The position numbers and the translations under genes are program-made. From positions 256,172-320,171 of the forward strand of contig JACRDQ010000030.1 in assembly GCA_016218545.1 (NCBI GenBank): DNA of 64,000 nt, given 5' to 3'. Source of the DNA: Elusimicrobiota bacterium. GTDB lineage: Bacteria > Elusimicrobiota > Elusimicrobia > UBA1565 > UBA9628. Shown here piece after piece: positions 5,158-43,493 of the stretch (its first letter is position 1; the number at the start of each line of letters is the position of its first letter). Under the pieces are notes generated by a model, which was not told the origin of the DNA, searched no databases, and saw only the letters and a program-made list of their open reading frames with translations.

Positions 5158-6405
5158 TCAGGCGCCATAGCGGCCGACGAGCTCCTCTTTCGTCTTGCCC
5201 AGGATCCCGTGCTTCCTGCCGACCTTGACGAAGGCCTCCAGCGCGCGGTCGAGGTGGCTCGTCTCGTGGCCGGCCGAGATCTGCGTGCGGATGCGGGCCG
5301 TGCCCGGCGGCACCACGGGGTAGAAGAACCCCACGGCGTAGACGCCCTCGTCGAAGAGGTCCCGGGAGAAGTCCTGGGAGAGCTTGGCGTTGAAGAGCAT
5401 GACCGGCACGATGGGGGTGTCGCCCTCCTTGAGGATGAACCCGGCCTCGGCGAGGCCCTTGCGCCAGTAGGCGGCGTTCCTCTCGAGCTTGTCGCGCCGC
5501 TCCGTGCTCTGGGTCAGCATGTCCAGGACCCGCAGGACCCCGGCGACGACGACCGGCGCGATGGTGTTGGAGAAGAGGTAGGGCCGCGCGCGCTGGCGGC
5601 ACATCTCCACGAGCTCCCGGCGGCCGGAGACGCAGCCGCCCGAGGCGCCGCCCAGGGCCTTGCCGAAGGTCGTGGTGATGAGGTCGACCTTGCCCCGGAC
5701 CCCGTACTTCTCCGGCGTGCCCCGGCCGGTCCTGCCGATGAACCCGGTCGCGTGGGAGTCGTCTACGAAGAGCAGCGCCCCATGAGCCTCGCAGAGGCGC
5801 TCCAGCTCGTCGAGCGGCGCGCAGTCGCCGTCCATGGAGAAGACGCCGTCCGTGATGACGACCTTGAGCCTCCTGCCCGCGTGCTTCTCGAGCAGGGAGG
5901 CCAGGTGCGCCATGTCGCAGTGCTGGTAGATGTCGCGCTGGGCCTTGCAGAGCCGGACGCCGTCGATGATGGAGGCGTGGACGAGCCGGTCCGAGATCAT
6001 GACGTCGCGCTCGCCGAGGACGGCCTCGAAGACGCCGGCGTTGGCGTCCATGCAGGAGGGGAAGAGGATGGTGTCCTCGGTGCCCAGGAACTCGGTCATG
6101 CGGGCCTCGAGCTCCTTGTGGATGTCCTGCGTGCCGCAGATGAAGCGCACGGAGGACATGCCGTAGCCGCGGGCGTCCAGGCCCGCGTGCGCCGCCTTGA
6201 CGACCTCGGGGTGGCTGGAGAACCCGAGGTAGTTGTTGGCGCACATGTTGATGACCTTCCTGGGAGAGGCGCCCGCCGGGAACTCCACTTCGATGTCCGC
6301 GGCCTGGGGGGAGCGGATGAAGCGCTCGGCCTTGAAGAGCCCGGAAGCCCTGATGCCCTCGAGCTCCTTCTGGAATCCCTGACGAACCGTCTCGGTGAAA
6401 GCCAT
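5158..6405 (-). CDS. kbl: Glycine C-acetyltransferase (2-amino-3-ketobutyrate CoA ligase), a PLP-dependent enzyme
   Basis: From MAFTETVRQG it aligns end to end with E. coli Kbl, including SVRFICGTQDIHKELE, SDRLVHASIIDGVRLCKA, DGVFSMDGD, TFGKALGGASGG and FFYPVVPPGTARIRTQISAGH. No tdh gene lies next to it. Confidence 0.85.
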   Translation of the reverse strand: MAFTETVRQGFQKELEGIRASGLFKAERFIRSPQAADIEVEFPAGASPRKVINMCANNYLGFSSHPEVVKAAHAGLDARGYGMSSVRFICGTQDIHKELEARMTEFLGTEDTILFPSCMDANAGVFEAVLGERDVMISDRLVHASIIDGVRLCKAQRDIYQHCDMAHLASLLEKHAGRRLKVVITDGVFSMDGDCAPLDELERLCEAHGALLFVDDSHATGFIGRTGRGTPEKYGVRGKVDLITTTFGKALGGASGGCVSGRRELVEMCRQRARPYLFSNTIAPVVVAGVLRVLDMLTQSTERRDKLERNAAYWRKGLAEAGFILKEGDTPIVPVMLFNAKLSQDFSRDLFDEGVYAVGFFYPVVPPGTARIRTQISAGHETSHLDRALEAFVKVGRKHGILGKTKEELVGRYGA

Positions 6406-6602
6406 GGTCCCTCCCGGTCCTCCGCGCCCCAAGACTACCATGATTGGCCGACGGAATCAACCTCGCGCGGGGCCCTGCCCGGGGCGGTTAGGTAGAACTA
6501 CGGAGTGCCCCTTGGGGCTGCCACGGATTGTGTCCCGGCCGGGGGTTGGGGTACCATGAAGTACCGCCCGGCTCCTCGACACGGCCGGGCAGGAGGACCT
6601 CG

Positions 6603-7295
6603 ATGGACTTCTCAAAGCCGCTCTCCATGACCCCTGAAGGACTCGGTCCGCACGCGCACGCCGCCCTCATCCACCTCTCCCGCCAGGAACAGCTCTCCTT
6701 CGTCGTGCCCTATCACCGCTCAGGGCTCGAGCGCGGGGAGAAGTGCGTCTGTGTGGCCGACGCCGACGGCGTCGAGGCCCTGTGGGCCGCCTTGAGGGCC
6801 GCCGGGGTCGACGCGGCCGGGGCCCTGGCCAAGGGGCAGCTCGCGAGCCTCTCCCCCGAGGAGGTCTACCTGAAGGACGGCCGCTTCGACCCTGCCCCGA
6901 CCTTGGCCGTGTTTCGGGGAGCCATCGAGGAGGCTCGCCGGCAGGGGTTCTCCGGGCTGCGGGTTTCCGCGGACATGACCTGGTCCTGCGGCGGGGCCGC
7001 GGCCATGCCGCTCCTGGCGGACTACGAGGCCGAGGTCAACCGCCTCTTCGAGGACCACCCCTTCGGCGCGGTCTGCCAATACGAATACGGCCGCTTCTCC
7101 GCGGACGCCCTGACCAGGGTCGTCTATACCCACCCCTTGGTGATCTTCGGCGGCAGGGTGCACTGGAACCCCTTCTTCATCCCGCCGAACGAGTACCTCA
7201 GGCCGCGGGACCCCGACGCGGAGCTCACGCGCGTGCTGAGCATGCTCTGCCGGGCGTCCTCCATGCGGGAGCGGCCCGTCCCCGTCGTCGTCTGA
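6603..7295 (+). CDS. MEDS-domain sensory protein (methanogen/methylotroph DcmR sensory domain)
   Basis: Translation starts at MDFSKP after a strong AGGAGG SD. Motifs HAALIHLSRQEQLSFVVPY..GEKCVCVAD..LRVSADMTW..YEYGRF match my memory of the MEDS family. Confidence 0.5.
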   Translation: MDFSKPLSMTPEGLGPHAHAALIHLSRQEQLSFVVPYHRSGLERGEKCVCVADADGVEALWAALRAAGVDAAGALAKGQLASLSPEEVYLKDGRFDPAPTLAVFRGAIEEARRQGFSGLRVSADMTWSCGGAAAMPLLADYEAEVNRLFEDHPFGAVCQYEYGRFSADALTRVVYTHPLVIFGGRVHWNPFFIPPNEYLRPRDPDAELTRVLSMLCRASSMRERPVPVVV

Positions 7296-7314
7296 CGGTC
7301 GGGCCCCCCCGCCG

Positions 7315-8064
7315 ATGAGTTATAATGGAAGGGTGACCCCTGGCAAGGCCGACACGAGCGGGCAGGAGGGGATCCGCTATAAGATCCTGACGGTGGATGA
7401 CGACGCCGAGTGCCTCTCCATGCTGCGGGTCTGCCTGAGCCGAGCCGGCCACACGGTGCTGGCCGCGCGCTCCGCCCGCGAAGCCCTGCTGGCCGCTGTG
7501 GACTCCGGTCCGGACCTCGTCATCTCGGACGTCCAGATGGCGGGCGATGACGGCTTCGAGCTCTCGCGCCGCCTCAAGGCCGGCCCCGCGACCGCGCGCA
7601 TCCCCATCATCCTCCTGTCCGGCGCCAGCAAGGATGTCCGGGACCAGCTCGAGGGCTTCGGCCTCGGGGTCGACGACTATCTGATCAAGCCTTTCGAGCC
7701 GGCCCTCCTCCTGGCCAAGGTCCACGCGGTCCTGCGGCGCTACGCCGTCGCCGAGGAGCTGCGGGACGTGGTGAAGTCCAGGGGCGTGGAGCTCGACGTG
7801 CAGGCGCGCACCGTGTCCTGCTCGGGGTCCCCGGTCGCGCTCAGCCGCAAGGAGTTCGACCTGCTCATCACCCTCATCCGCAAGCGGGGCCATGTCTTGA
7901 GCCCGTCGTTCCTCCTGGAATCGGTCTGGAGCCAGGACCTCGCGGAATACAACGATCCGCGCACGGTGAAGGTCCACATCTCGTCCCTGCGAAAGAAGCT
8001 GCCGCCCGCCGTGGCGCGGCGCATCATGACCGTGCCCGGCTCCGGCTACCGCTTCGACGCCTAG
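7315..8064 (+). CDS. OmpR/PhoB-family response regulator (receiver plus winged-helix domains)
   Basis: The receiver has ILTVDDD ... DLVISDVQMAGDDGFEL ... DDYLIKPF. The C-terminal winged helix has LSRKEFDLLITLI..RTVKVHISSLRKKL. Confidence 0.85.
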   Translation: MSYNGRVTPGKADTSGQEGIRYKILTVDDDAECLSMLRVCLSRAGHTVLAARSAREALLAAVDSGPDLVISDVQMAGDDGFELSRRLKAGPATARIPIILLSGASKDVRDQLEGFGLGVDDYLIKPFEPALLLAKVHAVLRRYAVAEELRDVVKSRGVELDVQARTVSCSGSPVALSRKEFDLLITLIRKRGHVLSPSFLLESVWSQDLAEYNDPRTVKVHISSLRKKLPPAVARRIMTVPGSGYRFDA

Positions 8065-8170
8065 GCGCCGGCGGGCTTCTGCCGTCGACCGCGTCCCTGG
8101 CTTGACCTTTTTTTTACCGCCATCCGGCACACTATGATTGGGGACGGCGGACGTCGCGCCGTACGATGCC

Positions 8171-10285
8171 ATGGAAGAAGACAAGAACAAGAAACTGGCC
8201 TTACGCATCGCCTCGTTGTTGGACGACGTCTCGGAAACGCCGGAGCCCCGGGGCTCCGGCGCTCCGAGCCAGCCGGTCATCTCGCTGAGACCCGCCGTGG
8301 TGGAGGCCCTCCCCGCGGGCGCGGATCTCGGCTCTCCCGCGGTCCAGGCCCCTTCCGAGGTCCTGGCCTCGCCCGAGGTCGGGTCCGCTGTGATGGATAT
8401 CCTGCCCATCTGGGCTGACCCCGACTTTCCTGCGGAGCAGGCCGTGCCCGCGCCGGCCGAAGGGGCCGCGGCCAGCGCGGCCCCCAAGAGGTCCGTGCTG
8501 GTGGTCGACGATGACCGGGACTACCGGCGGATGGTCCGGGCCCTGCTTTCCGGCAACGGCTATGACGTCTACGAGGCCGAGGATGGGCGCCGGGCTCTGC
8601 AGTTGATCGCGCTGCACCGTCCGGACCTGGTGCTCGTGGACTTCAACATGCCGCGGATGAACGGCTACGAGATGATCCAGGAGGTGCGGAGCCGGTTCGA
8701 GACCCGCGCCATTCCGATCATCATGTTCACCGGCGCTTCCAACCGGAGCCACCTGCGGAGCCTGGGCATGGCTATCTCGGATTTCCTGGAGAAGCCGGTG
8801 TCCAATGTCAGGCTGCTGGAGAGCATCTCCAGCGTGCTCGGCGCGGAGCCGTCTCCCGAGCTCATGGGAGCGGAGTCCGCCCCGTCTCCCCGGATCGTTG
8901 CGCCGCCGAAGGCTCCGGAGACGACGCCGTCCCCGAAAGTCGTCGCAGCCGAAACCATGGCTGAGAAGCCTCCGGCGGCGCCGGCGGAGCCCGCTCCGAC
9001 GGGCCTGCCGCCGGAGCCGCTCGAAGAAGGGGACGAGGACGGGACCGAGCTCCTGCAGATCGAGGAGGAGAAGAAGGAGGAGGAGAGGCAGGAGGTCATC
9101 AGCCTCGAGCACCAGGCCAATGAGTCCCCGGTCATCAGCCAGGTGAACCGCATCCTCGTCAAGGCCGTGGGGATGCGCGCCTCCGACATCCACATCGAGC
9201 CTCAGGAGAAGCACATCACGGTCCGCGTGAGGGTCGACGGCACTCTCAAGCTCCTGTGCACCCTGCCCCTCTCCATCCATCCCCGCCTGAGCGCCCGCAT
9301 CAAGATCATGTCCAGCCTGGTCATCACGGAGAGACGCCTTCCCCAGGACGGGCAGTTCAAGACCCAGATCAGGGGCAGCCGGGTCGAGTTCCGGGTGAGC
9401 ACGCTCCCGTGCCTGCACGGCGAGAAGATCGTCATGCGCATCTTGGGCACCAGCAAGCTCAACGCCGATCTGGCCCAGATGAGCCTCCGTCCCCGCGACC
9501 TGGGCTGCGTGGAGAGGGCGCTCAGGACCCCTCACGGCCTCATCCTCGTGACCGGCCCCACCGGGAGCGGCAAGACCACCACCCTCTACACCATGATCAG
9601 CGTCCTCAACAAGCCCGAAGTCAACATCCTGACCGCCGAGGACCCCGTGGAGTACGAGGTGCCGGACATCTCGCAGGTCAAGGTCCTGCCGTCCATCGGC
9701 CTGACCTTCGAGTCCGCTCTGCGGGCCTTCCTGAGGCAGGACCCGGACATCATGCTCATCGGCGAGATCCGCGACCTGGAGACGGCCAACATCGCGGTCA
9801 AGGCCTCTATCACCGGACACCTGGTCTTCTCCACCCTGCATACCAACGGCGCCGTCGCCACCGTGACGAGGCTCGTCCACATGGGGGTGGCGCCCTATCT
9901 CGTCGCGGCCAGCGTCAAGCTCGTGGCGGCCCAGCGCCTGGTCCGGGACCTCTGCCCGTCCTGCAAGGTCCCCGGCGAGGTCTCCGACGACGAGAAGAAG
10001 TTCCTCGCGGAGGAGGAGGTCGCCAGGCTCCGATCCGTCTGGCGGAGCGCGGGGTGTCCCGCCTGCCATCAGACGGGGTACTCGGGGCGCTCGGCCCTCT
10101 TCGAGATCATGCCCCTGGACTCGGCGGCCATGCGCCAGCTCATCTGCGCCGGAGACAAGGCGGAGGAGCTCAACCGTCTGGCCCTTGCGGAGGGCATGAC
10201 CACCCTGCGGCAAGCCGCCTTGGAGGCGGTGGCGCGGGGCACGACCTCGTTGAGCGAGGCGCTCAAGGTCATGCTGGGGGGATGA
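8171..10285 (+). CDS. GspE/PilB-family secretion ATPase with an N-terminal disordered segment and a receiver (REC) domain
   Basis: The REC domain is VLVVDDDRDYRRMV..DLVLVDFNMPRMNGYE..EKP. The ATPase core has SDIHIEP, Walker A GPTGSGKTTT, DIMLIGEIRD, and the tetracysteine CPSC..CPAC. The start could instead be the TTG at 8138; the ATG at 8171 is used here. Confidence 0.8.
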   Translation: MEEDKNKKLALRIASLLDDVSETPEPRGSGAPSQPVISLRPAVVEALPAGADLGSPAVQAPSEVLASPEVGSAVMDILPIWADPDFPAEQAVPAPAEGAAASAAPKRSVLVVDDDRDYRRMVRALLSGNGYDVYEAEDGRRALQLIALHRPDLVLVDFNMPRMNGYEMIQEVRSRFETRAIPIIMFTGASNRSHLRSLGMAISDFLEKPVSNVRLLESISSVLGAEPSPELMGAESAPSPRIVAPPKAPETTPSPKVVAAETMAEKPPAAPAEPAPTGLPPEPLEEGDEDGTELLQIEEEKKEEERQEVISLEHQANESPVISQVNRILVKAVGMRASDIHIEPQEKHITVRVRVDGTLKLLCTLPLSIHPRLSARIKIMSSLVITERRLPQDGQFKTQIRGSRVEFRVSTLPCLHGEKIVMRILGTSKLNADLAQMSLRPRDLGCVERALRTPHGLILVTGPTGSGKTTTLYTMISVLNKPEVNILTAEDPVEYEVPDISQVKVLPSIGLTFESALRAFLRQDPDIMLIGEIRDLETANIAVKASITGHLVFSTLHTNGAVATVTRLVHMGVAPYLVAASVKLVAAQRLVRDLCPSCKVPGEVSDDEKKFLAEEEVARLRSVWRSAGCPACHQTGYSGRSALFEIMPLDSAAMRQLICAGDKAEELNRLALAEGMTTLRQAALEAVARGTTSLSEALKVMLGG

Positions 10286-10286
10286 T

Positions 10287-11048
10287 ATGCCCGGCATGCC
10301 GTTGGTCGAGGCCTTTCGGGGCGACCTCACGACCCAGGAGCTCTGTCGTCGGGGACGCCTCAAGCTCAGGCGTTTCGATCCTCCCGGCTACGCGGAGGCC
10401 GTCGCCTTCTTCTCGGACGCGCGGGAAGGCGATCCGGAGTGCGCGGTCTCCGTGGCCGCCCTGGCCGAAGCCTACTCGCACTGGGGTTTCGCGAGGAAGC
10501 TCATAGGGCAGGAGAGCGAGAGCTATTTCCTCCTGGCTTTCGAGAACGCCTGCTTGGCGCTGGAGATGGCCCCTGAACTCGCCGAGACGCACCGGGCCAT
10601 GGCCGTCTGCCTGAGGCACCGGCCGCGCCGCGGCCCCGAGCAGGGACTCGCCGAGGCGTCGGCAGCGGTGAGGATCAACCCTTACGACGCCATGTCCTGC
10701 TACGAGCTCTGGCGGGCGATGGGCCATGACCCCGAGTCACCCATGATCCACAAGGCCCTGGCGCTCGATCCCGCGCTGCTGACCGTCAACAATGACCTGG
10801 CGGTGTCGCTCATGGAAGCGGAGCGCGCCCAAGAGGCCGGCTTCCATCTGCGCCAGTGCCTGCGGGTCAATTACGAGAACGCGGTGGCCCGATACAACAT
10901 GGTCCTGCTCCTCGCCTGCCGCGGCAAGACCGAGCAGGCGCAGACCCTGCTCGAGGCCTGGCTGAAGGGGCCCGATTTCGAGCCGCTGGTGCGCAGCGGG
11001 AACGCGTCGCTGGCTGACCCGCGCTCCACGGGGGGGATCCTCTTATGA
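10287..11048 (+). CDS. TPR-like repeat protein
   Basis: A helical repeat protein whose start is coupled to the GspE stop and whose end overlaps the kinase start. Confidence 0.55.
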   Translation: MPGMPLVEAFRGDLTTQELCRRGRLKLRRFDPPGYAEAVAFFSDAREGDPECAVSVAALAEAYSHWGFARKLIGQESESYFLLAFENACLALEMAPELAETHRAMAVCLRHRPRRGPEQGLAEASAAVRINPYDAMSCYELWRAMGHDPESPMIHKALALDPALLTVNNDLAVSLMEAERAQEAGFHLRQCLRVNYENAVARYNMVLLLACRGKTEQAQTLLEAWLKGPDFEPLVRSGNASLADPRSTGGILL

Positions 11049-35857: not shown

Positions 35858-38526
35858 ACAAGACCTACGATCCCCAGCCGGTCGAGAGCAAGTGGTGCGG
35901 CGCGTGGCGCCGGAGCAAGCTCTTCGGCTCCCAGGCGGCCGCTTCCTCCGGCCCCAAGCCCTTCGTGGTCGTCATCCCGCCGCCGAACGTGACCGGCGCC
36001 CTGCACATCGGGCACGCCCTCAACAACACCCTGCAGGACATCCTGGTGCGCTGGCACAAGCTCCACGGCCGGCCCGTGTGCTGGGTGCCCGGCACGGACC
36101 ACGGCGGCATCGCGACGCAGAACGTCAAGGAGCGCCAGCTCAAGGCCGAGAACAAGACCCGGCATGACCTCGGCCGCGAGGCGTTCGTCTCTTCCATGCA
36201 GTCCTGGTCCTCCGAATGCAAGAAGACCATCCTCGGCCAGCTCGAGCGGCTCGGCTGCGGCCTGGATTGGGACCGCGAGGCCTTCACCATGGACGCGGCC
36301 CGGGCCAAGGCCGTGCACGCGGCCTTCGAGAGCTACTGGAAGAAGGGACTCATCTACCGCGGCGAGCGCATGGTCAACTGGTGCGTCCGCTGCGGGACCG
36401 CGCTCTCGGACATCGAGGTCGAGTACGAGGAGCGCAAGGGCCACCTCTGGCACATCCACTACCCCTTGAAGGGCGGGGGCGAGGGCCTGACCGTGGCCAC
36501 GACCCGGCCCGAGACCATGCTGGGGGACACCGCCGTGGCCGTGCATCCCAAGGACGCCCGGTACGCGGGCCTCATCGGCAAGTCCCTGACCCTGCCCCTC
36601 ATGGAACGGGACATCCCGGTCGTGGCCGACGACGTCGTGGAGTCCTCCTTCGGCACCGGGGCGGTCAAGGTGACGCCCGCCCACGACCCCAACGACTTCG
36701 AGATCGGCGGCCGCCACGGACTGGCCCTCATCAAGGTCATCGGCCCGGACGGCAAGATGACGTCCGAGGCGGGCGCGTACGCGGGCCTCTCCCGGGAGAA
36801 GGCCAGGGACAAGGTCCTCGAGGACCTCAAGGCCGGCGGCCGCCTCGTCAAGACCGAGGACCACCGGCACAGCGTGGGCGTCTGCTACCGCTGCATGTCC
36901 GCGGTCGAGCCCTTGGTCTCCAAGCAGTGGTTCGTGCGCATGAAGGACCTCGCGGCCCCGGCTCTGAAGGCCGTGGAGGAGGGCCGGTTCCGTATCTACC
37001 CCGAATCCTGGACCAAGCCCTACGTCGAGTGGCTCTCCAACATCCGCGACTGGTGCGTGTCGCGCCAGATCTGGTGGGGCCACCGGATCCCGGTCTGGTA
37101 CTGCGCGGCCTGCCGGGAGAAGGACGGCTACAAGCCCCAGGTGGGGGCCTCCCAGCCGGCCTCGTGCCCGGACTGCGGGGGGACGGTCCTCGAGCAGGAC
37201 CCCGACGTGCTCGACACCTGGTTCTCCTCGGCCCTCTGGCCGTTCTCCGTCTTCGGCTGGCCCGACCAGGGGCCGGACCTCTCCTTCCATTATCCCACGA
37301 GCGTGCTCGTGACGGGCTATGAGATCCTCTACCTATGGGTCGCGCGCATGCAGATGTCGGGCCTCGAGGCCCTCGGCCAGGTCCCCTTCGAGCACGCCGT
37401 CATCCACGGCATCGTCCGCGACAAGAAGGGCAAGAAGATGTCGAAGTCCCTGGGCAACGTCATCGACCCGCTCGTGATGATGGACAAGTACGGCACCGAC
37501 GCCCTGCGCTTCTCGCTGGCGGTCCAGGCCCACCCGGGCCGGGACATCCCGTTCTCCGAGGAGTCTCTCACCGGCTCGCGGAACTTCGCCAACAAGCTCT
37601 GGAACTCCACGCGCTTCGTGCTCATGAACCTGCCGGAGACCGCGCCCGAGGGCGGGCTCTCCCTGAAGGGCTTCGCCCCGGAGGCCCTCGACCTCTGCGA
37701 CCGCTGGATCCTGGCCGAGTACGCTCAGACCCTTTCCCGCTGCCGCGGGCTCATGAAGGAATACGAGGTCGCGGCCGCCGCGGACGTCCTCTACGGCTTC
37801 CTCTGGGACCGCTTCTGCGACTGGTACGTCGAGCTGGCCAAGATCCGCCTCCAGGGCGCCGACGAGGCCGCCAAGGCCGCGCCGCGCGCGGTCCTGGCGC
37901 ACGTGCTGACCGGGACCCTCAAGATGCTCCACCCCTTCATGCCCTACATCACCGAGGAGCTCTACGCGAGCCTCAAGCCCTTCGTGGGCGAGCATGCGGA
38001 CTTCCTCCTGCGGTCCGGGGCGCCGGAGCCGGGGTCCGAGTGGGAGTCCGCGGGCGCGATCCGGGAGATGGGACGGCTCATCGACGTGGTCAAGGCCCTG
38101 CGGACCTTGCGCTCCGAGATGTGCGTGCCTCCGGGCCTGAGGATCTCTGCCATCGCCGAGGGCGGGGAGTCCCGCGACCGGGACCTCCTCTTCAAGTACG
38201 GCGAGTACGTGAGGTTCCTCGCCAGGCTCTCGGAGCTCAAGCCCTCGCACGACGGCGAGCGGCCCCCGCACAGCGCCACGGCCGTGGCCTCGGGCATGAC
38301 CTTCTTCGTGCCCCTGGAGGGCGTCATCGACCTCTCCAAGGAGCGTCAGCGCCTGGAGAAGGAGGTCGGACGGCTGGAGGTCGAGGCCGCGCGGCTGGCC
38401 GCCAAGCTGGGCGACGCCGTGTTCATGGAGCGCGCGCCCCGCGAGCAGGTGGACCTCTCCCGCTCCCAGCACGCGGACGCGAACGCCCGCCTGGGCCGGC
38501 TCAAGGACGTCCTGAAGTCCCTCTGA
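35851..38526 (+). CDS. valS: Valine--tRNA ligase
   Basis: HIGH motif (ALHIGHA), KMSKS motif, CP1 editing domain and coiled-coil C-terminus. 891 aa. Confidence 0.95.
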   Translation: MLDKTYDPQPVESKWCGAWRRSKLFGSQAAASSGPKPFVVVIPPPNVTGALHIGHALNNTLQDILVRWHKLHGRPVCWVPGTDHGGIATQNVKERQLKAENKTRHDLGREAFVSSMQSWSSECKKTILGQLERLGCGLDWDREAFTMDAARAKAVHAAFESYWKKGLIYRGERMVNWCVRCGTALSDIEVEYEERKGHLWHIHYPLKGGGEGLTVATTRPETMLGDTAVAVHPKDARYAGLIGKSLTLPLMERDIPVVADDVVESSFGTGAVKVTPAHDPNDFEIGGRHGLALIKVIGPDGKMTSEAGAYAGLSREKARDKVLEDLKAGGRLVKTEDHRHSVGVCYRCMSAVEPLVSKQWFVRMKDLAAPALKAVEEGRFRIYPESWTKPYVEWLSNIRDWCVSRQIWWGHRIPVWYCAACREKDGYKPQVGASQPASCPDCGGTVLEQDPDVLDTWFSSALWPFSVFGWPDQGPDLSFHYPTSVLVTGYEILYLWVARMQMSGLEALGQVPFEHAVIHGIVRDKKGKKMSKSLGNVIDPLVMMDKYGTDALRFSLAVQAHPGRDIPFSEESLTGSRNFANKLWNSTRFVLMNLPETAPEGGLSLKGFAPEALDLCDRWILAEYAQTLSRCRGLMKEYEVAAAADVLYGFLWDRFCDWYVELAKIRLQGADEAAKAAPRAVLAHVLTGTLKMLHPFMPYITEELYASLKPFVGEHADFLLRSGAPEPGSEWESAGAIREMGRLIDVVKALRTLRSEMCVPPGLRISAIAEGGESRDRDLLFKYGEYVRFLARLSELKPSHDGERPPHSATAVASGMTFFVPLEGVIDLSKERQRLEKEVGRLEVEAARLAAKLGDAVFMERAPREQVDLSRSQHADANARLGRLKDVLKSL

Positions 38527-38536
38527 CCCGGCGGGC

Positions 38537-40666
38537 TCAGCGCGCGATGCGGAAGCCCACGCGCGAGTCGCCGCTCGACATGCCCTCGCGGTGCGTGGTG
38601 GTGGCCTTGGAAGCGCCGTAGCGCCAGACCCCGCCGCGGATCATCGTGGAACTGCCCGACGTGGTCCAGGCTCCGGCGTTCGAGGGCGCCCCGCTGTACG
38701 TGTCGTGGAAGAGGTCCTCGACCCACTCGTAGACGTTGCCCGCCATGTCGCAGACCCCGTGGACCGTCACGTCCCTCTTGGAGCAGGGCGGCCAGGGCAC
38801 GTTCCTGCCGCAGCCGTCACCCGCCACGTCCGTGACCGCGTGATCGCAGGTGAGGGCCTCGTTCCCCCAGGGGTACTTCCAGTCCTTCCCGCCCCCGCGG
38901 GCGGCGTATTCCCACTCGGCCTCGGAGGGCAGGCGGCCGCCCGCCCACCGGGCGAAGGCCTGGGCCTGGTCCTGGTTGATGCACACGACCGGGAGCTCGT
39001 CCTGCATGAATTGGCTCAGCGTGGCCGCCCCGAACACGGTGCAGGAGGCGTTGGTCGGGGTGCAGGCCCCGGCTCCGACGCACTCCTTGTACTGCCCCAG
39101 GGTGACCTCGGTCTTGGAGAGCTGGAACGAGGGCACGGTGACCATGTGGACCGGCTTCTCGGTGCCGTCGTCGTTGGAGCCCATCATGAACGTCCCGCCC
39201 GGAATCGGGACCCACACGATCCCGCTCCTGCCCTTGACGGGCGCGGACTTGAGCGCCTCCGGCGGGACCGTGCCCGCCGGCAGAAGGGGGGCCAGCTCCG
39301 AGAGGAAGGGGTTGTCCTCGCTCGTGCGGCCGTAGGCCTGGACGAACATCATGGCCCAGCGCTTCTTGTCCTTGTCCGGGATGACGGAGAGGCTCAGCAG
39401 CCTGCGGAGCTTGCTCCAGTCCTTGTCCCGGGCCTCGGCGCGGCGCGCGCGCGCCTCCTCGGCCGCCTTCTTGGCCTCGGAGAACTTCTTCCACTCCTCG
39501 GCGCGGCGGTTGGCTTTGTCGGCGAACTGCGGGCTCGACTGCGCCAGGGCCAGCCACCGGGCGGCCTTGTCCTCGGCCGAGGCCTCGCCCTTGTCGAAGG
39601 CGATGGCCGCGTCGTACTTCTCCAGGGCGTCCACGTCGAGGTCGCGCCAGTCCGCGGTGTCCGCGTCGGAGGCGAGGGCCTCGGGCGCCGAGACCGCGGG
39701 CACCGTGGGCAGCTCGCTGATCTGGAACATCTCCGCGGTGGAGCGGCCCGCGGACTCCTTGGCGAGGACCGACAGGTCCGGGCCGGCCTCGCCGGCCGAG
39801 GTCCCGAAGACGGCGGCGGTCTTGCCGGTGAGCTCCGGGGTCTGCTCGCGGCCCCTGAGGGTCGCGCGCAGGGCCTCGTCCGCGAAGCTGAAGATCTCGC
39901 CGGCCGTCACCTTGCCGTCGTGGTCGGAGTCGGCCCAGCCGCGCAGCGCTCCGAGGAGCAGGTAGCTGAAGGCGGGCCTCTTGGCTCCGGGGAGGGGGCC
40001 GGCGAACTGGTTGCCCTTGGCCGCGGTGAGCACCACGAAGCGCGCGTCCTGCGGAGGGGTGAGCGCGGCCAGGACCAGGGGCTGGAGGCCCTCCACCAGG
40101 GCGCCGGCCTCGGTCCTGCCTGAGAAGCACGCGTCGATGACGACGTTCACCTGGCTCGCCTTGGTCGAGCCGAGCAGGCGCAGGACCTCTCCCCTGGGGA
40201 GGCTCCGGGCGTAGAGGCTGGCGGCCTTCTGCTGGGCGTCCACGCCCACGAGGACCCCGTCCTTGGCGTCCTGGCCGGGGGCTCCGTGGCCGATGAAGAC
40301 GAACCAGAGGGTCCCTCCCTGCGCGGCGCGCACGGCGCTCTCGACCGCGGCCTGGCGGATCTCCTCGACGGTCCCGTCCGACTCGAGGAGGAGGCGGATG
40401 TTGGCGGGCTTGAGCCCCCGGGTCTTGGTGAGGTAGTCGTACCAGGCCCGGGCGTTGTCTCCGGCCCCTTTGACCGGGGACACGAACGCGTAGCGCTCGA
40501 TGCCCACGATGACCGCGGCGTCGCTCTCTCCACCGCCGATGGAGGCGGCGGGCTTGCCGAGGTCCGGCCAGGAGACCTTCGCCCACGCCTCCGGCGCGGC
40601 GCAGAGCGCGGCGGCGGCGAGCAGCAAGGTCGCGCGGATCACGCGGGGGCGGAAGGTCTTGTCCAT
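38537..40666 (-). CDS. Secreted fusion protein: N-terminal caspase-like peptidase C14 domain plus C-terminal FGE-sulfatase (SUMF1/formylglycine-generating enzyme-like) domain
   Basis: A signal peptide. IGHGAPG..VVIDACFSG is the caspase His/Cys dyad context. The C-terminus has GGTFMMGSNDDG..RLPSEAEWEYAARGG..GNVYEWVED..RGGVWRYG..RVGFRIAR. AGGAG SD before the ATG at 40666. Confidence 0.75.
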   Translation of the reverse strand: MDKTFRPRVIRATLLLAAAALCAAPEAWAKVSWPDLGKPAASIGGGESDAAVIVGIERYAFVSPVKGAGDNARAWYDYLTKTRGLKPANIRLLLESDGTVEEIRQAAVESAVRAAQGGTLWFVFIGHGAPGQDAKDGVLVGVDAQQKAASLYARSLPRGEVLRLLGSTKASQVNVVIDACFSGRTEAGALVEGLQPLVLAALTPPQDARFVVLTAAKGNQFAGPLPGAKRPAFSYLLLGALRGWADSDHDGKVTAGEIFSFADEALRATLRGREQTPELTGKTAAVFGTSAGEAGPDLSVLAKESAGRSTAEMFQISELPTVPAVSAPEALASDADTADWRDLDVDALEKYDAAIAFDKGEASAEDKAARWLALAQSSPQFADKANRRAEEWKKFSEAKKAAEEARARRAEARDKDWSKLRRLLSLSVIPDKDKKRWAMMFVQAYGRTSEDNPFLSELAPLLPAGTVPPEALKSAPVKGRSGIVWVPIPGGTFMMGSNDDGTEKPVHMVTVPSFQLSKTEVTLGQYKECVGAGACTPTNASCTVFGAATLSQFMQDELPVVCINQDQAQAFARWAGGRLPSEAEWEYAARGGGKDWKYPWGNEALTCDHAVTDVAGDGCGRNVPWPPCSKRDVTVHGVCDMAGNVYEWVEDLFHDTYSGAPSNAGAWTTSGSSTMIRGGVWRYGASKATTTHREGMSSGDSRVGFRIAR

Positions 40667-40742
40667 GGGGGCTCCTTGTCCGACCCTCTCATTATAGGAG
40701 CGAGAGGAGGGTCCCGTCAATGACGCCGGACACGTCCGGGGG

Positions 40743-40830
40743 CTAGTCCTTGCGGAACAGGGCCAGCCAGGAGACGGTCACGATGGGGATCACGGACGCG
40801 GCCAGGAGCGCGATGGTGCGCCAGGTCATG
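40743..40830 (-). CDS. Possible 29-aa single-TM micropeptide (MTWRTIALLAASVIPIVTVSWLALFRKD)
   Basis: A small ORF 3 nt downstream of the BON gene stop. Hydrophobic helix with a polar tail. Confidence 0.25.
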
Positions 40831-40833
40831 AGG

Positions 40834-41133
40834 TCATTCCTTGATGACGAGGTTGTCGACCACCTGCTCGACGCCCCGCGCGTCCTTGGCCGCGCGGCGG
40901 ATGGCCTCTTTCTGTTCCCAGGTGTCCACGAGGCCGGAGAGGGTCACGATCCGGGCGTGCACGTCGATGCTGACGGTGCCGGGCTTGACGCCCCGCTGGC
41001 TGGCCAGGACGCTCTCGATGTTGGCGAGGATGCCGGGGTCCGAGATGTCCGCGTCCCCGGCAGCGGGCATGCCGACGCAGGCGCACAGGCCTGCCAGGCC
41101 GGCGGCCGCGAGCAGGCGGAGGAGAACGCTCAC
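40834..41133 (-). CDS. BON-domain (OsmY-like) lipoprotein
   Basis: Signal peptide and lipobox. HARIVTLSGLVDTWEQKEAIRRAAKDARGVEQVVDNLVI is a BON domain. Confidence 0.7.
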   Translation of the reverse strand: MSVLLRLLAAAGLAGLCACVGMPAAGDADISDPGILANIESVLASQRGVKPGTVSIDVHARIVTLSGLVDTWEQKEAIRRAAKDARGVEQVVDNLVIKE

Positions 41134-41198
41134 GGAAGAAATGGTAACATTTACGGACGCCCAATGGAACCCGCTCGGGGCCTCGGGCTCCCTGGAAG

Positions 41199-43493
41199 AT
41201 GACGATGAGGATCCTGCTGGCCACCCGGAACCGCCACAAGGCGCGGGAGCTCGCGGCCATGACCGCGGGCAGCGGCGTCGCGTTCGCCCTGCTCGACGAG
41301 TTCCCAGCGTTCCCCGAGACCGTCGAGGACCTCCCCACCGTGGAGGGCAACGCCTCCAAGAAGGCCCGTGAGGCGGCGCTGCGCCTCAAGATGTGGACCT
41401 TGGCCGACGACACGGGGCTCGAGGTCGAGGCGCTCGGCGGGGCTCCCGGCGTCAGAGCCGCGCGCTTCGCGGGCCCGGGCTGCACCTACGCGGACAACAA
41501 CGCCAAGCTCCTCGCCTCCCTCCGGGGGGTGGAAGGTCCGCGCCGCAAGGCGGTCTTCCGCACGGTCATGGCCTTGAGCGATCCGGAGGGCAGGGTCACG
41601 CTCGAGGAGGGCAGGCTCCCCGGCTCCATCGCGTCCGGACCCAGGGGTTCGGCCGGCTTCGGCTACGACCCGCTCTTCCTCGTGGAGGACACGGGCCGGA
41701 CCCTGGCGGAGCTCTCCGACGAGGAGAAGAACCGGGTGAGCCACCGGCGGCGCGCCATGGAGAGGATGCTCCCTCACCTGGCGCGCGTCGCGGCCCTGGG
41801 GCTGGCGCTCCTCTGCTCCTGGACCGCCCCTGCCGCGGCGGGGCGGACCGAGCCGGGGCAGGAGACGATCTGGGACCAGATCATGGCGACCCAGGCCAAC
41901 CGCGGGATGCGGGCCGGGACCCGGCACATGGACGCGCAGCAGTATGACCTGGCCGAGGCCGAGTTCGCCAAGGCCGTGCACTCCAGCCCCAACGACGCCA
42001 ACGCCCACATGCTCCTGGGCGCCGCCTACTACTGGCGCGGCAAGGTGGACATGGCTCTCGGGGAGTTCCGCAAGGCCATCGAGCTCGACGACCGCAACGC
42101 CCAGGCCTGGATGCTCCTGGGCATCGCCATGGCCTGGAAGGGGGAGGCCCTGCCCGCGTACGAGGCGTTCCGCAAGGCGGGCGAGCTCGACGGCGCGCGC
42201 GCCGACATCCAGATGAACATGGGCTCGATCCTGGAGACCATGGGGCGCAACCAGGAGGCCCTCGGCCACTTCCGCAAGGCCGTGAACCTCGAGCCCACGC
42301 ACCCGCTCTACCATTTCCAGCTGGGCATGCTTTACCGGAGGCTCGGCCGCGACGGGGACGCCATCGAGTGCATGAAGGACGCCCTCAAGCTCTACCCGCA
42401 GTACGAGGACGCCCTCCTCGAGTTGGGGGCCGCCGAGGAGCGGCTGGGCCAGGACAAGGCCGCGTCGCACAGCTTCCGGAAGGCCGTCTCCCTCAAGTCG
42501 AAGGACGCGGTCGCCCGGTTCCGGCTGGGCAGACTCCTGCTGCGCGCCGGACAGCGGGCCGAGGCGCGGTCCGTCTTCTCCGACGCCTTCCACCTCACCC
42601 CCGAGGGCGAGGGGGGCGGCCTTCAGCTCTCGGTGGCCTATACCGGGGGCAAGAAGAAGCTCGCGGCCGGGGGCGGCGGGGGCTCCCCCTCGGGCTCCCA
42701 GCCGCCCGGGGAGCCTCCGCCTGCCGACGACCCGCTCTCCGTCTTCGCGCGCAACCTCGAGCGCATCCCGCTCGAGCAGGGCGCGGTCATGAACGTGGAC
42801 GTCGCCATGGTCCCCAAGCCCAAGCTCACCAAGGCCGACGACATCGAGAGCCGCGCTTCTCTCAAGCGCGCCCTGGAGAAGGGGATGAAGCCCGAGCGCT
42901 CCTCCATGAAGCTGGTGCGGCGGGAGTACGACCTGCCCGCGGGGCCGGAGTCGGCCCGGCAGGCCCAGATCAAGAAGATCCTCAACGACCTCTCCGACGT
43001 GGTCAAGAGCGCGCCTCCGGACTCGGACGTGCGCCTGGGCATGAACCTGACCTACAAGCGCCTCACCGACGCCGGGGCCCGGCGCGGGGCGGCCGAGAGC
43101 GCGGCCAAGGTCTCCTTCCAGCCCCGGGAGGTCGGCAACGACATGGGGCTCTGGGTCATCGGCACGGGCTGGATGACCCTCGTCGAGGAGATGCTGCCCG
43201 AGGCCGGGGCCGAGCTCCCGCGGAGCGACGACTCGGACTGGTGGGTGGCCCTGGGCCTGGGCTACGCCACCCTCGGCGACGGCCAGCGCGCCATGACGGC
43301 CTTCGAGCACGCGCTCCGGCACGACGCCCGGCATGAGGTCGCCCTGCTCGGTCGGGGCGTGGCCGCGGTCATGACCGGAGACGAGGCTCGGGCCCTGGCC
43401 GACTACCGCCGGGTCCTCCAGCTCAACCCGGCCAACCGCGCCGCGGCCGAGGGGCTCAAGTGGCTCCTGCGGCCTGTCAGGAGGAAGCAGTGA
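41199..43493 (+). CDS. In-frame fusion: RdgB/Ham1 non-canonical NTP pyrophosphatase domain, then a hydrophobic segment, then a TPR-repeat domain
   Basis: N-terminus MRILLATRNRHKARE..FGYDPLF is RdgB. From MERMLPHLARVAALGLALLCSWTAPAAA a signal-peptide-like segment precedes multiple TPRs. No stop separates the two parts. Confidence 0.6.
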   Translation: MTMRILLATRNRHKARELAAMTAGSGVAFALLDEFPAFPETVEDLPTVEGNASKKAREAALRLKMWTLADDTGLEVEALGGAPGVRAARFAGPGCTYADNNAKLLASLRGVEGPRRKAVFRTVMALSDPEGRVTLEEGRLPGSIASGPRGSAGFGYDPLFLVEDTGRTLAELSDEEKNRVSHRRRAMERMLPHLARVAALGLALLCSWTAPAAAGRTEPGQETIWDQIMATQANRGMRAGTRHMDAQQYDLAEAEFAKAVHSSPNDANAHMLLGAAYYWRGKVDMALGEFRKAIELDDRNAQAWMLLGIAMAWKGEALPAYEAFRKAGELDGARADIQMNMGSILETMGRNQEALGHFRKAVNLEPTHPLYHFQLGMLYRRLGRDGDAIECMKDALKLYPQYEDALLELGAAEERLGQDKAASHSFRKAVSLKSKDAVARFRLGRLLLRAGQRAEARSVFSDAFHLTPEGEGGGLQLSVAYTGGKKKLAAGGGGGSPSGSQPPGEPPPADDPLSVFARNLERIPLEQGAVMNVDVAMVPKPKLTKADDIESRASLKRALEKGMKPERSSMKLVRREYDLPAGPESARQAQIKKILNDLSDVVKSAPPDSDVRLGMNLTYKRLTDAGARRGAAESAAKVSFQPREVGNDMGLWVIGTGWMTLVEEMLPEAGAELPRSDDSDWWVALGLGYATLGDGQRAMTAFEHALRHDARHEVALLGRGVAAVMTGDEARALADYRRVLQLNPANRAAAEGLKWLLRPVRRKQ

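Follow-up and report, generated by a model that had tools for sequence, protein, structure and literature searches.

What can a bacterial protein do that joins a caspase-like protease to a domain resembling a formylglycine-generating enzyme (FGE)? The question is raised by a gene within a 64,000-nucleotide stretch of DNA from an Elusimicrobiota bacterium (contig JACRDQ010000030.1; the whole stretch is hereafter the window). The gene occupies 38537..40666 on the reverse strand and encodes 709 amino acids plus a stop codon. Its product is 100% identical to NCBI MBI5623935.1, a protein from an Elusimicrobia metagenome-assembled genome (MAG) that bears the name 'SUMF1/EgtB/PvdO family nonheme iron enzyme [Elusimicrobia bacterium]'. 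Our answer – to which we give a probability of roughly 0.6 – is that the protein would be an exported caspase-fold protease, followed by a helical domain and then by a non-catalytic, lectin-fold binding module (of the FGE subtype) that chooses the target of cleavage or triggers it.

Domain organization of the protein

The motifs by which the two halves of the protein were initially recognized are all present: IGHGAPG (residues 125-131) and DACFSG (178-183) in the N-terminal part, and GGTFMMGS (490-497), RLPSEAEWEYAARGG (578-592), GNVYEWVED (643-651) and RVGFRIAR (702-709) in the C-terminal part. The original prediction assigned the first of these parts to the caspase-type (C14) peptidases. Pfam PF00656 (Peptidase_C14), the kind of profile on which that assignment had been staked, does not match the whole protein at E<=1, nor residues 31-310 at E<=10, and to this extent the assignment failed. 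The fold, the intact His/Cys dyad and the matches to other profiles nonetheless uphold it. Residues 33-295 (39782..40570, reverse strand) align end to end with the NCBIfam model caspase_w_EACC1 (NF047832; E 8e-19, 67.9 bits, which is under the cut-off of 140), and the PADLOC caspase model is matched at E 9e-14. PF00656 itself recognizes 6 of 29 full-length homologs (best 2e-10) as well as several paralogs (at about 1e-8 to 1e-9). Comparison of a profile of the family's N-terminal domain to PDB sequences returned metacaspases only: MCA1 of C. glabrata (1.8e-4), Yca1 (2.2e-4) and TbMCA2 (7e-3). The caspase-hemoglobinase fold is found here, and in the profile search GHG aligns to GHG and DACFSG to the DSCHSG of Yca1, with H127 (40286-40288) and C180 (40127-40129) at the canonical catalytic positions.

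Among 81 homologs His127 is retained in 80 and Cys180 in 79, while G128, D143, D178, S182 and G183 are invariant; D178 is the Asp that stands two residues ahead of the catalytic Cys. Because the NCBIfam, PADLOC and PDB-profile matches agree with one another and with the PF00656 matches of homologs, the predicted module is a divergent but genuine caspase-fold domain. The cysteine protease is probably active. Asn71, which is likewise invariant, aligns with the position of D95 in TbMCA2, which we take to be the S1-pocket Asp of metacaspases; because an Asn replaces that Asp, P1 specificity is uncertain. In one homolog (P0084) Gln replaces the catalytic His and Ser the catalytic Cys, which makes it a likely pseudo-protease.

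The N-terminus, MDKTFRPRVIR-ATLLLAAAALCAA-PEAWA followed by KV, resembles a Sec type-I signal peptide: residues 1-29 (MDKTFRPRVIRATLLLAAAALCAAPEAWA, followed by KVSWPDL; 40580..40666, reverse strand) comprise a basic n-region, a 13-residue hydrophobic core and an A-W-A site. Neither a lipobox nor a twin-arginine motif could be read in this N-terminus. The letters of the signal peptide differ among homologs, yet the feature itself persists, with a hydrophobic N-terminal core and then an AxA-like (small-x-small) site placed just ahead of a conserved WPD motif in 71 of 76 homologs. The distribution of cysteines is also informative. Mature residues 30-480 contain the catalytic Cys alone, and the FGE-like domain contains six that are conserved in the 81-homolog alignment (529, 535, 607, 619, 628 and 639): a pattern that would be typical of exported proteins with disulfides. 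Both observations back the earlier suggestion of an extracytoplasmic protein, and we predict Sec-dependent export to the periplasm or cell surface.

What had been described as a long coiled or charged linker between the two modules proves to be a conserved domain. Following a conserved Pro-rich connector (residues 296-344), residues 345-472 (39251..39634, reverse strand) are predicted to form five helices, one of them 47 residues long, with a pLDDT (predicted local distance difference test score) of 90-97. Nine positions are invariant, three of which are Trp (K367, W371, R388, W392, D416, W417, L420, L424 and K434). No Pfam family matches the helical domain, and its function is unassigned. It is also rare: 171 clusters were recovered at E<=1e-3 among 1.84 billion representatives. 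In ten such matches scanned with Pfam the helical domain is followed by an FGE-like domain in seven cases and by PEGA in one; in ten scanned paralogs of the window protein's family, six have Sel1 repeats in that place. Judged by these matches, the helical domain occurs almost only in the family of the window protein.

The C-terminal domain (residues 485-709; 38540..39214, reverse strand) is unambiguously of the FGE-sulfatase type, which has a C-type-lectin fold: PF03781 matches over profile positions 5-255 of 255 with an E-value of 1.1e-46 and 160 bits, against a gathering cut-off of 23.3. Whether the domain could act as an FGE depends on its catalytic, copper-binding pair of cysteines, and these are gone. 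In the HMMER alignment Y683 is paired with the first catalytic Cys of the Streptomyces coelicolor enzyme (2q17/6muj; ...RGGSYLCHD); residues 640-709 of the window protein contain no Cys; no column beyond residue 639 reaches a Cys frequency of 10% among the 81 homologs; and the pair is missing from every one of them. The segment of the fold that houses the FGE active site is, moreover, the least conserved part of the domain. Scores against NCBIfam models of related proteins reach none of the respective cut-offs (PvdO, 83.8 against 500; GldK, 71.5 against 350; SenA, 69.2 against 420; EgtB, 65 against 360), while PvdO is the best PDB match of the domain both by sequence and by fold. Because the catalytic cysteines are absent from the window protein and its homologs alike, the FGE-like domain is, as far as its sequence tells, not a formylglycine-generating enzyme. 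Variants of the C-terminal architecture occur among the homologs: one (P0004, at locus L018) has two FGE-like domains in tandem, and another (P0028) has an additional cyclophilin domain (PF00160) at its C-terminus.

A scan of genomes returned 276 relatives, most of them in MAGs of Elusimicrobia and of Myxococcota/'Deltaproteobacteria', with a few in Spirochaetaceae and Eisenbacteria. Copies may be numerous, with at least five in the MAG JACRDT and four each in JACRNU and DMEZ. Many of these paralogs match just residues 33-460 or 33-300. Within the same MAGs the caspase and helical head is retained while the C-terminus differs: Sel1 repeat arrays are most frequent, and an OMP-barrel-like segment, a DUF3108-like domain, a Ser/Thr kinase, MORN repeats or nothing recognizable are found in other cases. 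On this comparison the FGE-like domain fills a swappable tail position that is elsewhere occupied mostly by protein-binding repeats, and this constitutes independent support for a role in recognition. The paralog with the kinase (1038 amino acids; L064, 5491-8607, in the Elusimicrobia MAG contig JACQWX010000051; PF00069, 1.7e-47) shows two partners of FGE-like domains, 'caspase' and 'kinase', joined within one family.

The C-terminal segment and diversity-generating retroelements

The last 33 residues of the FGE-like domain have a peculiar structure. In the 81 homologs R677, G678, W681, R693, G704, F705 and R706 form an invariant scaffold that alternates with columns whose entropy exceeds 3 bits and in which D, G, Y, S, N and F prevail. 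Such a pattern marks the variable region in FGE/C-type-lectin-class targets of diversity-generating retroelements (DGRs), and the resemblance was then tested. DGRs are known for diversifying ligand-binding sites. They do so by adenine mutagenesis, by which K, E, Q, M and W are unreachable from AAC codons. These five residues account for 8.3% of the hypervariable columns versus 19% of the other high-entropy columns in the FGE-like domain.

Two homologs have the corresponding template. The first is encoded in an uncultured Myxococcales MAG (CAIZWN010000068; locus L017) and shares 50% identity with the window protein across 684 residues, along with its signal peptide, dyad, helical domain and whole architecture; full-length homologs with the same order of caspase-like, helical and FGE-like domains, for which a search in other taxa had been proposed, thus exist. 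The last 126 nt of this target are repeated 2.3 kb downstream at 84% identity, and of the 20 mismatches 19 fall at adenines of the template. The complete cassette (5959-10444) consists of the target (variable region 7929-8054), an HRDC gene, bAvd (PF22296, 1.4e-15), a reverse transcriptase (RVT_1, 2e-18) and the template repeat (10319-10444). The template encodes RGGSWNNDAGNLRSANRNRNSPGNRNDNLGFR, and its Asn codons coincide with the hypervariable columns. A DsbD-like gene lies on the opposite strand after the cassette.

The second case is from an Elusimicrobia MAG (JACRDO010000026; locus L030), whose homolog (P0075) is 40% identical to the window protein. Here a 124-nt variable/template pair is found downstream (8199-9100), with 95% of 22 mismatches (about 21) at template adenines and with an Avd homolog between the two copies. 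The template is followed by some 11 codons of a possible reverse transcriptase start (MAITYNRLYEQ) and then by unrelated sequence: tentatively, the locus would have lost its reverse transcriptase while keeping the template repeat and Avd. HRDC-like coding sequence was also noticed directly downstream of other family members (L028, 8155-8572; L025, 8404-8538; L090-L092, 12404-12538), in flanks where no reverse transcriptase, Avd or template repeat was found. Because HRDC is the first gene of the Myxococcales cassette, these sequences may be remnants of cassettes that were lost.

In the window gene the equivalent of the variable region spans residues 677-709 (RGGVWRYGASKATTTHREGMSSGDSRVGFRIAR; 38540..38638, reverse strand). 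The C-terminal variable-region scaffold is there, on a C-type-lectin-fold domain, and its scaffold residues match. The apparatus of diversification was looked for throughout the 64-kb window. There is no repeat of 38537-38720 beyond chance matches of 10-22 nt, and tblastn with the reverse transcriptase, Avd and HRDC proteins of the Myxococcales cassette yielded no significant match; the best one, at E 0.011, fell within the target gene. The segment is approximately 70% identical to that of two close relatives (P0002 and P0003), to which the whole protein is 75-77% identical; and the clade of the window protein is without scaffold residues (R689 and a PxxR motif) that the templates of both DGR-bearing loci keep. 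Because neither template nor reverse transcriptase is present within 64 kb and the segment is conserved in two close relatives, the binding segment of the window gene looks like a fixed allele, and the gene is apparently an ordinary, non-diversifying member of its family.

It could be argued that a template repeat and reverse transcriptase elsewhere in the genome, beyond the window, continue to serve the gene as an active DGR target. The family does include true targets, other bacteria are known to have targets at a distance (the 'RVP' entries of PMC7517822), and the search covered 64 kb of a 320-kb contig. Against this stand the negative searches just described, a segment that is roughly as similar to those of its close relatives as the rest of the protein is, the loss of R689 and PxxR in the window clade, and the presence of residues that cannot be reached from AAC; we regard continuing diversification from a distance as very unlikely. 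Taken across the family, the binding segment appears to differ strongly between lineages, having been diversified by retroelements in a few and being static in most, the window gene among them.

How the architecture may be read

If the C-terminal domain is a receptor, then the protein would work in the following way. Having been exported by the Sec pathway to the periplasm or cell surface, it would bind a specific ligand – protein or glycan, belonging to the envelope or foreign – by means of its lectin-fold tail, the binding surface being the C-terminal 33 residues (677-709). Binding would either deliver a substrate to the active site of the caspase-like domain or relieve autoinhibition and so switch the protease on, and the helical domain would be a rigid spacer or a regulatory element. 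That the FGE-like domain may act in recognition rather than as a formylglycine generator had been suggested at the outset, and the suggestion draws computational support from the loss of the cysteines, from DGR targeting in homologs and from the swapping of tails.

Several observations weigh against this reading. The Pfam C14 model fails on the window protein and Asn71 occupies the S1 Asp position; specificity, and even activity, could differ from those of metacaspases. The top-scoring solved structures, PvdO and PorK, are not known as ligand receptors. K687, E694 and M696 in the segment of the window protein are unreachable from AAC codons by adenine mutagenesis. Among 163 related loci, searched in both orientations, a template repeat within 6-10 kb was detected in two only (the Myxococcales and Elusimicrobia loci described above), and the idea that the whole family is actively diversified was rejected for this reason. 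Likewise, in none of the eight clusters tested at 90% identity does the variable-region equivalent vary, although other parts of the proteins do (of 35 variable columns in one such cluster and 29 in another, 0 fall within it). Diversification by DGRs is, by these counts, the exception in the family. Finally, the neighbours of the gene are housekeeping genes in an arrangement that is unconserved beyond a relative with 77% identity, and such a context gives no hint of function or of an operon.

How then do other explanations fare? The C-terminal domain might be an enzyme after all (an FGE, a PvdO-like oxidoreductase or a 'nonheme iron enzyme'), so that proteolysis would be coupled with chemical modification, as has been speculated (PMC3501461); the strength of the PF03781 match, PvdO as best PDB match by sequence and fold, and the agreement of the NCBI name all speak for it. 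Yet the copper-binding cysteines of FGE are absent from all 81 homologs, scores lie far under the NCBIfam cut-offs for PvdO, EgtB and SenA, and variability within the domain peaks in the segment corresponding to the FGE active site, which DGRs rewrite in homologs, a situation incompatible with a conserved catalytic site. In EgtB and OvoA the iron site lies in a DinB domain, and this domain is absent from the window protein. An enzymatic tail is, on this evidence, very improbable. Unlikely too, if less so, is a tail that serves for localization or as a structural module, anchoring the protease to an envelope structure in the manner of PorK/GldK, the ring lipoprotein with an FGE fold. A fold shared with such a protein accommodates the idea, but the GldK/PorK model is matched with only 71.5 bits against a cut-off of 350 and there is no lipobox; hypervariability between lineages and targeting by DGRs would be unexpected of an anchoring surface; and the commonest alternative tail consists of Sel1 repeats, a protein-binding module.

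Doubt may also fall on the head of the protein. That the caspase-like domain is a pseudo-protease scaffold would fit the failure of Pfam C14, the homolog that has lost both dyad residues (P0084) and the documented existence of pseudo-orthocaspases (PMC6426788); the dyad and the GHG and DACFSG motifs are, however, kept in 79-80 of 81 homologs, including the window protein, and align with the catalytic residues of Yca1, so that we hold this to be highly improbable. Equally little credence is given to the idea that the protein acts in the cytoplasm, as effector or sensor in a conflict system of the programmed-cell-death or anti-phage type (for instance an EACC1-type caspase or a protease that activates gasdermin). 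The best caspase profiles, those of NCBIfam (caspase_w_EACC1) and PADLOC, do derive from such systems, and the combination of an unchanging caspase with a C-terminus that varies has its parallel in the EACC1 system (PMC7159879). But 67.9 bits fall below the cut-off of 140, and the signal peptide is conserved; the gene upstream encodes, by the Pfam match of its syntenic ortholog, a BON-domain protein rather than EACC1, and is conserved only in the 77% relative; and in the vicinity are valS, murC and rdgB, with no gene for an NTPase, a gasdermin or an adaptor.

An exported protease guided or triggered by a lectin-fold receptor, which remains our preferred reading, can be extended speculatively. 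The family might consist of 'antigen-directed' proteases whose receptor aims the caspase head at molecules that invade the envelope (phage proteins, bacteriocins or the effectors of competitors, for example) or lets such molecules trigger it. Receptor specificity would arise from episodic hypermutation by retroelements and become frozen once the DGR had disappeared. The window gene would then represent one of these frozen alleles and the Sel1-tailed paralogs a germline-encoded alternative to them, all of these together amounting to a periplasmic, immune-like repertoire in Elusimicrobia and Myxococcota. We think it rather unlikely that this extension holds as a whole.

Gene context and known systems

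The originally given limits of the gene, 38537-40666, are correct. The ATG at 40666 is the likely start codon, because AAGGAG, a Shine-Dalgarno sequence, sits 5 nt upstream (40672..40677, reverse strand) and is itself preceded by a sigma-70-like promoter site, TTGACG-18 nt-TATAAT (40691..40720, reverse strand; 11 of 12 matches), both elements having been read from the sequence. One promoter-like site was found in the 3 kb from 38300 to 41300 versus 0.1 expected in shuffles. A TTG at 40720 opens the mechanically defined open reading frame, yet it falls within this site and is therefore assigned to the -35 box.

The gene is convergent with valS, whose stop codon is 10 nt away; its other neighbours are a BON-domain gene, a fusion of rdgB with a TPR region, and murC. 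No paralog was found in the window by tblastn. The order murC, rdgB-TPR, BON, caspase-FGE gene, valS is kept only in the 77% relative (L001), and two further homologs (P0007 and P0020) are flanked by unrelated housekeeping genes. Directly upstream, on the same strand, with the promoter-like site in between, lies the gene for the BON-domain protein (99 amino acids; 40834-41133, reverse strand), which has a signal- or lipoprotein-like N-terminus. Its assignment is that of the syntenic ortholog (PF04972), and its adjacency to the caspase-FGE gene was seen in the 77% relative alone, more distant homologs being without it. The open reading frame at 41199-43493 (forward strand; 764 amino acids) combines an N-terminal Ham1/RdgB-type non-canonical NTP pyrophosphatase with a hydrophobic segment and a long TPR region; its syntenic ortholog has 768 amino acids and matches PF01725 and many TPR families. 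In the window, the 3' end of the frame overlaps the start of murC (43460).

Fusions of metacaspases with FGE-sulfatase domains are not new. In a survey of 671 prokaryotic metacaspases 33 had this architecture, which made FGE-sulfatase the fifth commonest partner domain, and it was speculated that proteolysis and formylglycine modification act together (Asplund-Samuelsson et al. 2012, PMC3501461). The original prediction held that FGE-like domains usually stand alone or are fused to kinases, and a fusion of the present kind is, by this count, less unusual than had been supposed. Caspase/FGE-sulfatase fusions were encountered again in Baltic Sea metagenomes (2016, PMC4933709), and in Ca. Thiomargarita magnifica an FGE-sulfatase domain accompanies one third of caspase domains, which was left unexplained by the authors (preprint 10.1101/2022.02.16.480423). 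It is an old puzzle that such fusions should occur in bacteria with few sulfatases (as in the 2012 survey and in Thiomargarita), and the present results favour a lectin-fold binding module of the DGR type over an enzyme. They also indicate that the NCBI name is misleading: the FGE cysteines are absent, scores are far under the cut-offs for EgtB, SenA and PvdO, and the protease half goes unannotated.

The window protein shares with the published metacaspase- and orthocaspase-FGE fusions an N-terminal caspase fold with a His/Cys dyad and a C-terminal PF03781 domain. Unlike them, its clade has a Sec signal peptide and a helical domain between the two modules, belongs mainly to Elusimicrobia and Myxococcota MAGs, and is for the most part missed by PF00656 (6 of 29 members match). 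With Yca1 (4f6o), TbMCA2 (4af8), AtMC4/9, MALT1 and Geobacter GSU0716 (3bij) it has in common the caspase-hemoglobinase fold, with GHG, DxCxSG and the Asp two before the Cys at the same positions. Identity to these proteins is, however, only 12-20%, an invariant Asn71 is found where metacaspases have the S1 Asp, and the window protein is (by prediction) exported and is fused to helical and lectin-fold domains.

The C-terminal domain has relatives of its own. PvdO (5hha) is a periplasmic, single-domain protein of pyoverdine maturation encoded in a pyoverdine operon, a context that the window gene does not have. TvpA of Treponema denticola (2y3c) is a lipoprotein that is without a protease domain and, unlike the window gene, is an active DGR target. 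FGE-type lectin domains have been treated as DGR-diversified sensor or ligand-binding domains of conflict systems (Kaur et al. 2020, PMC7159879; Doré et al., PMC10907252). The closest parallel is provided by the variable proteins of cyanobacterial DGRs, which join an orthocaspase N-terminus to a C-type-lectin C-terminus, have many paralogs without a DGR, and are mostly predicted to be cytosolic, with a few secreted (Vallota-Eastman et al. 2020, PMC7517822). The Myxococcales and Elusimicrobia loci follow the same logic, that of a protease head with an FGE-type lectin tail rewritten from a template repeat by adenine mutagenesis; the family of the window protein is, in contrast, exported, and the window gene has neither template nor reverse transcriptase within 64 kb.

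The link between an exported caspase family and DGRs, together with the evidence against an enzymatic role for the FGE-like domain, is useful and in line with published ideas, and a compact exported family in which a few members are still hypermutated could prove tractable for finding what bacterial caspase homologs recognize and cleave outside the cytoplasm. Caspase-FGE fusions and orthocaspase-lectin targets of DGRs were already known (2012 and 2020, respectively), and the window protein adds to them. It stands out by its export signal and rare helical domain, by the phyla in which its family occurs, and by a caspase domain so divergent that Pfam misses it.

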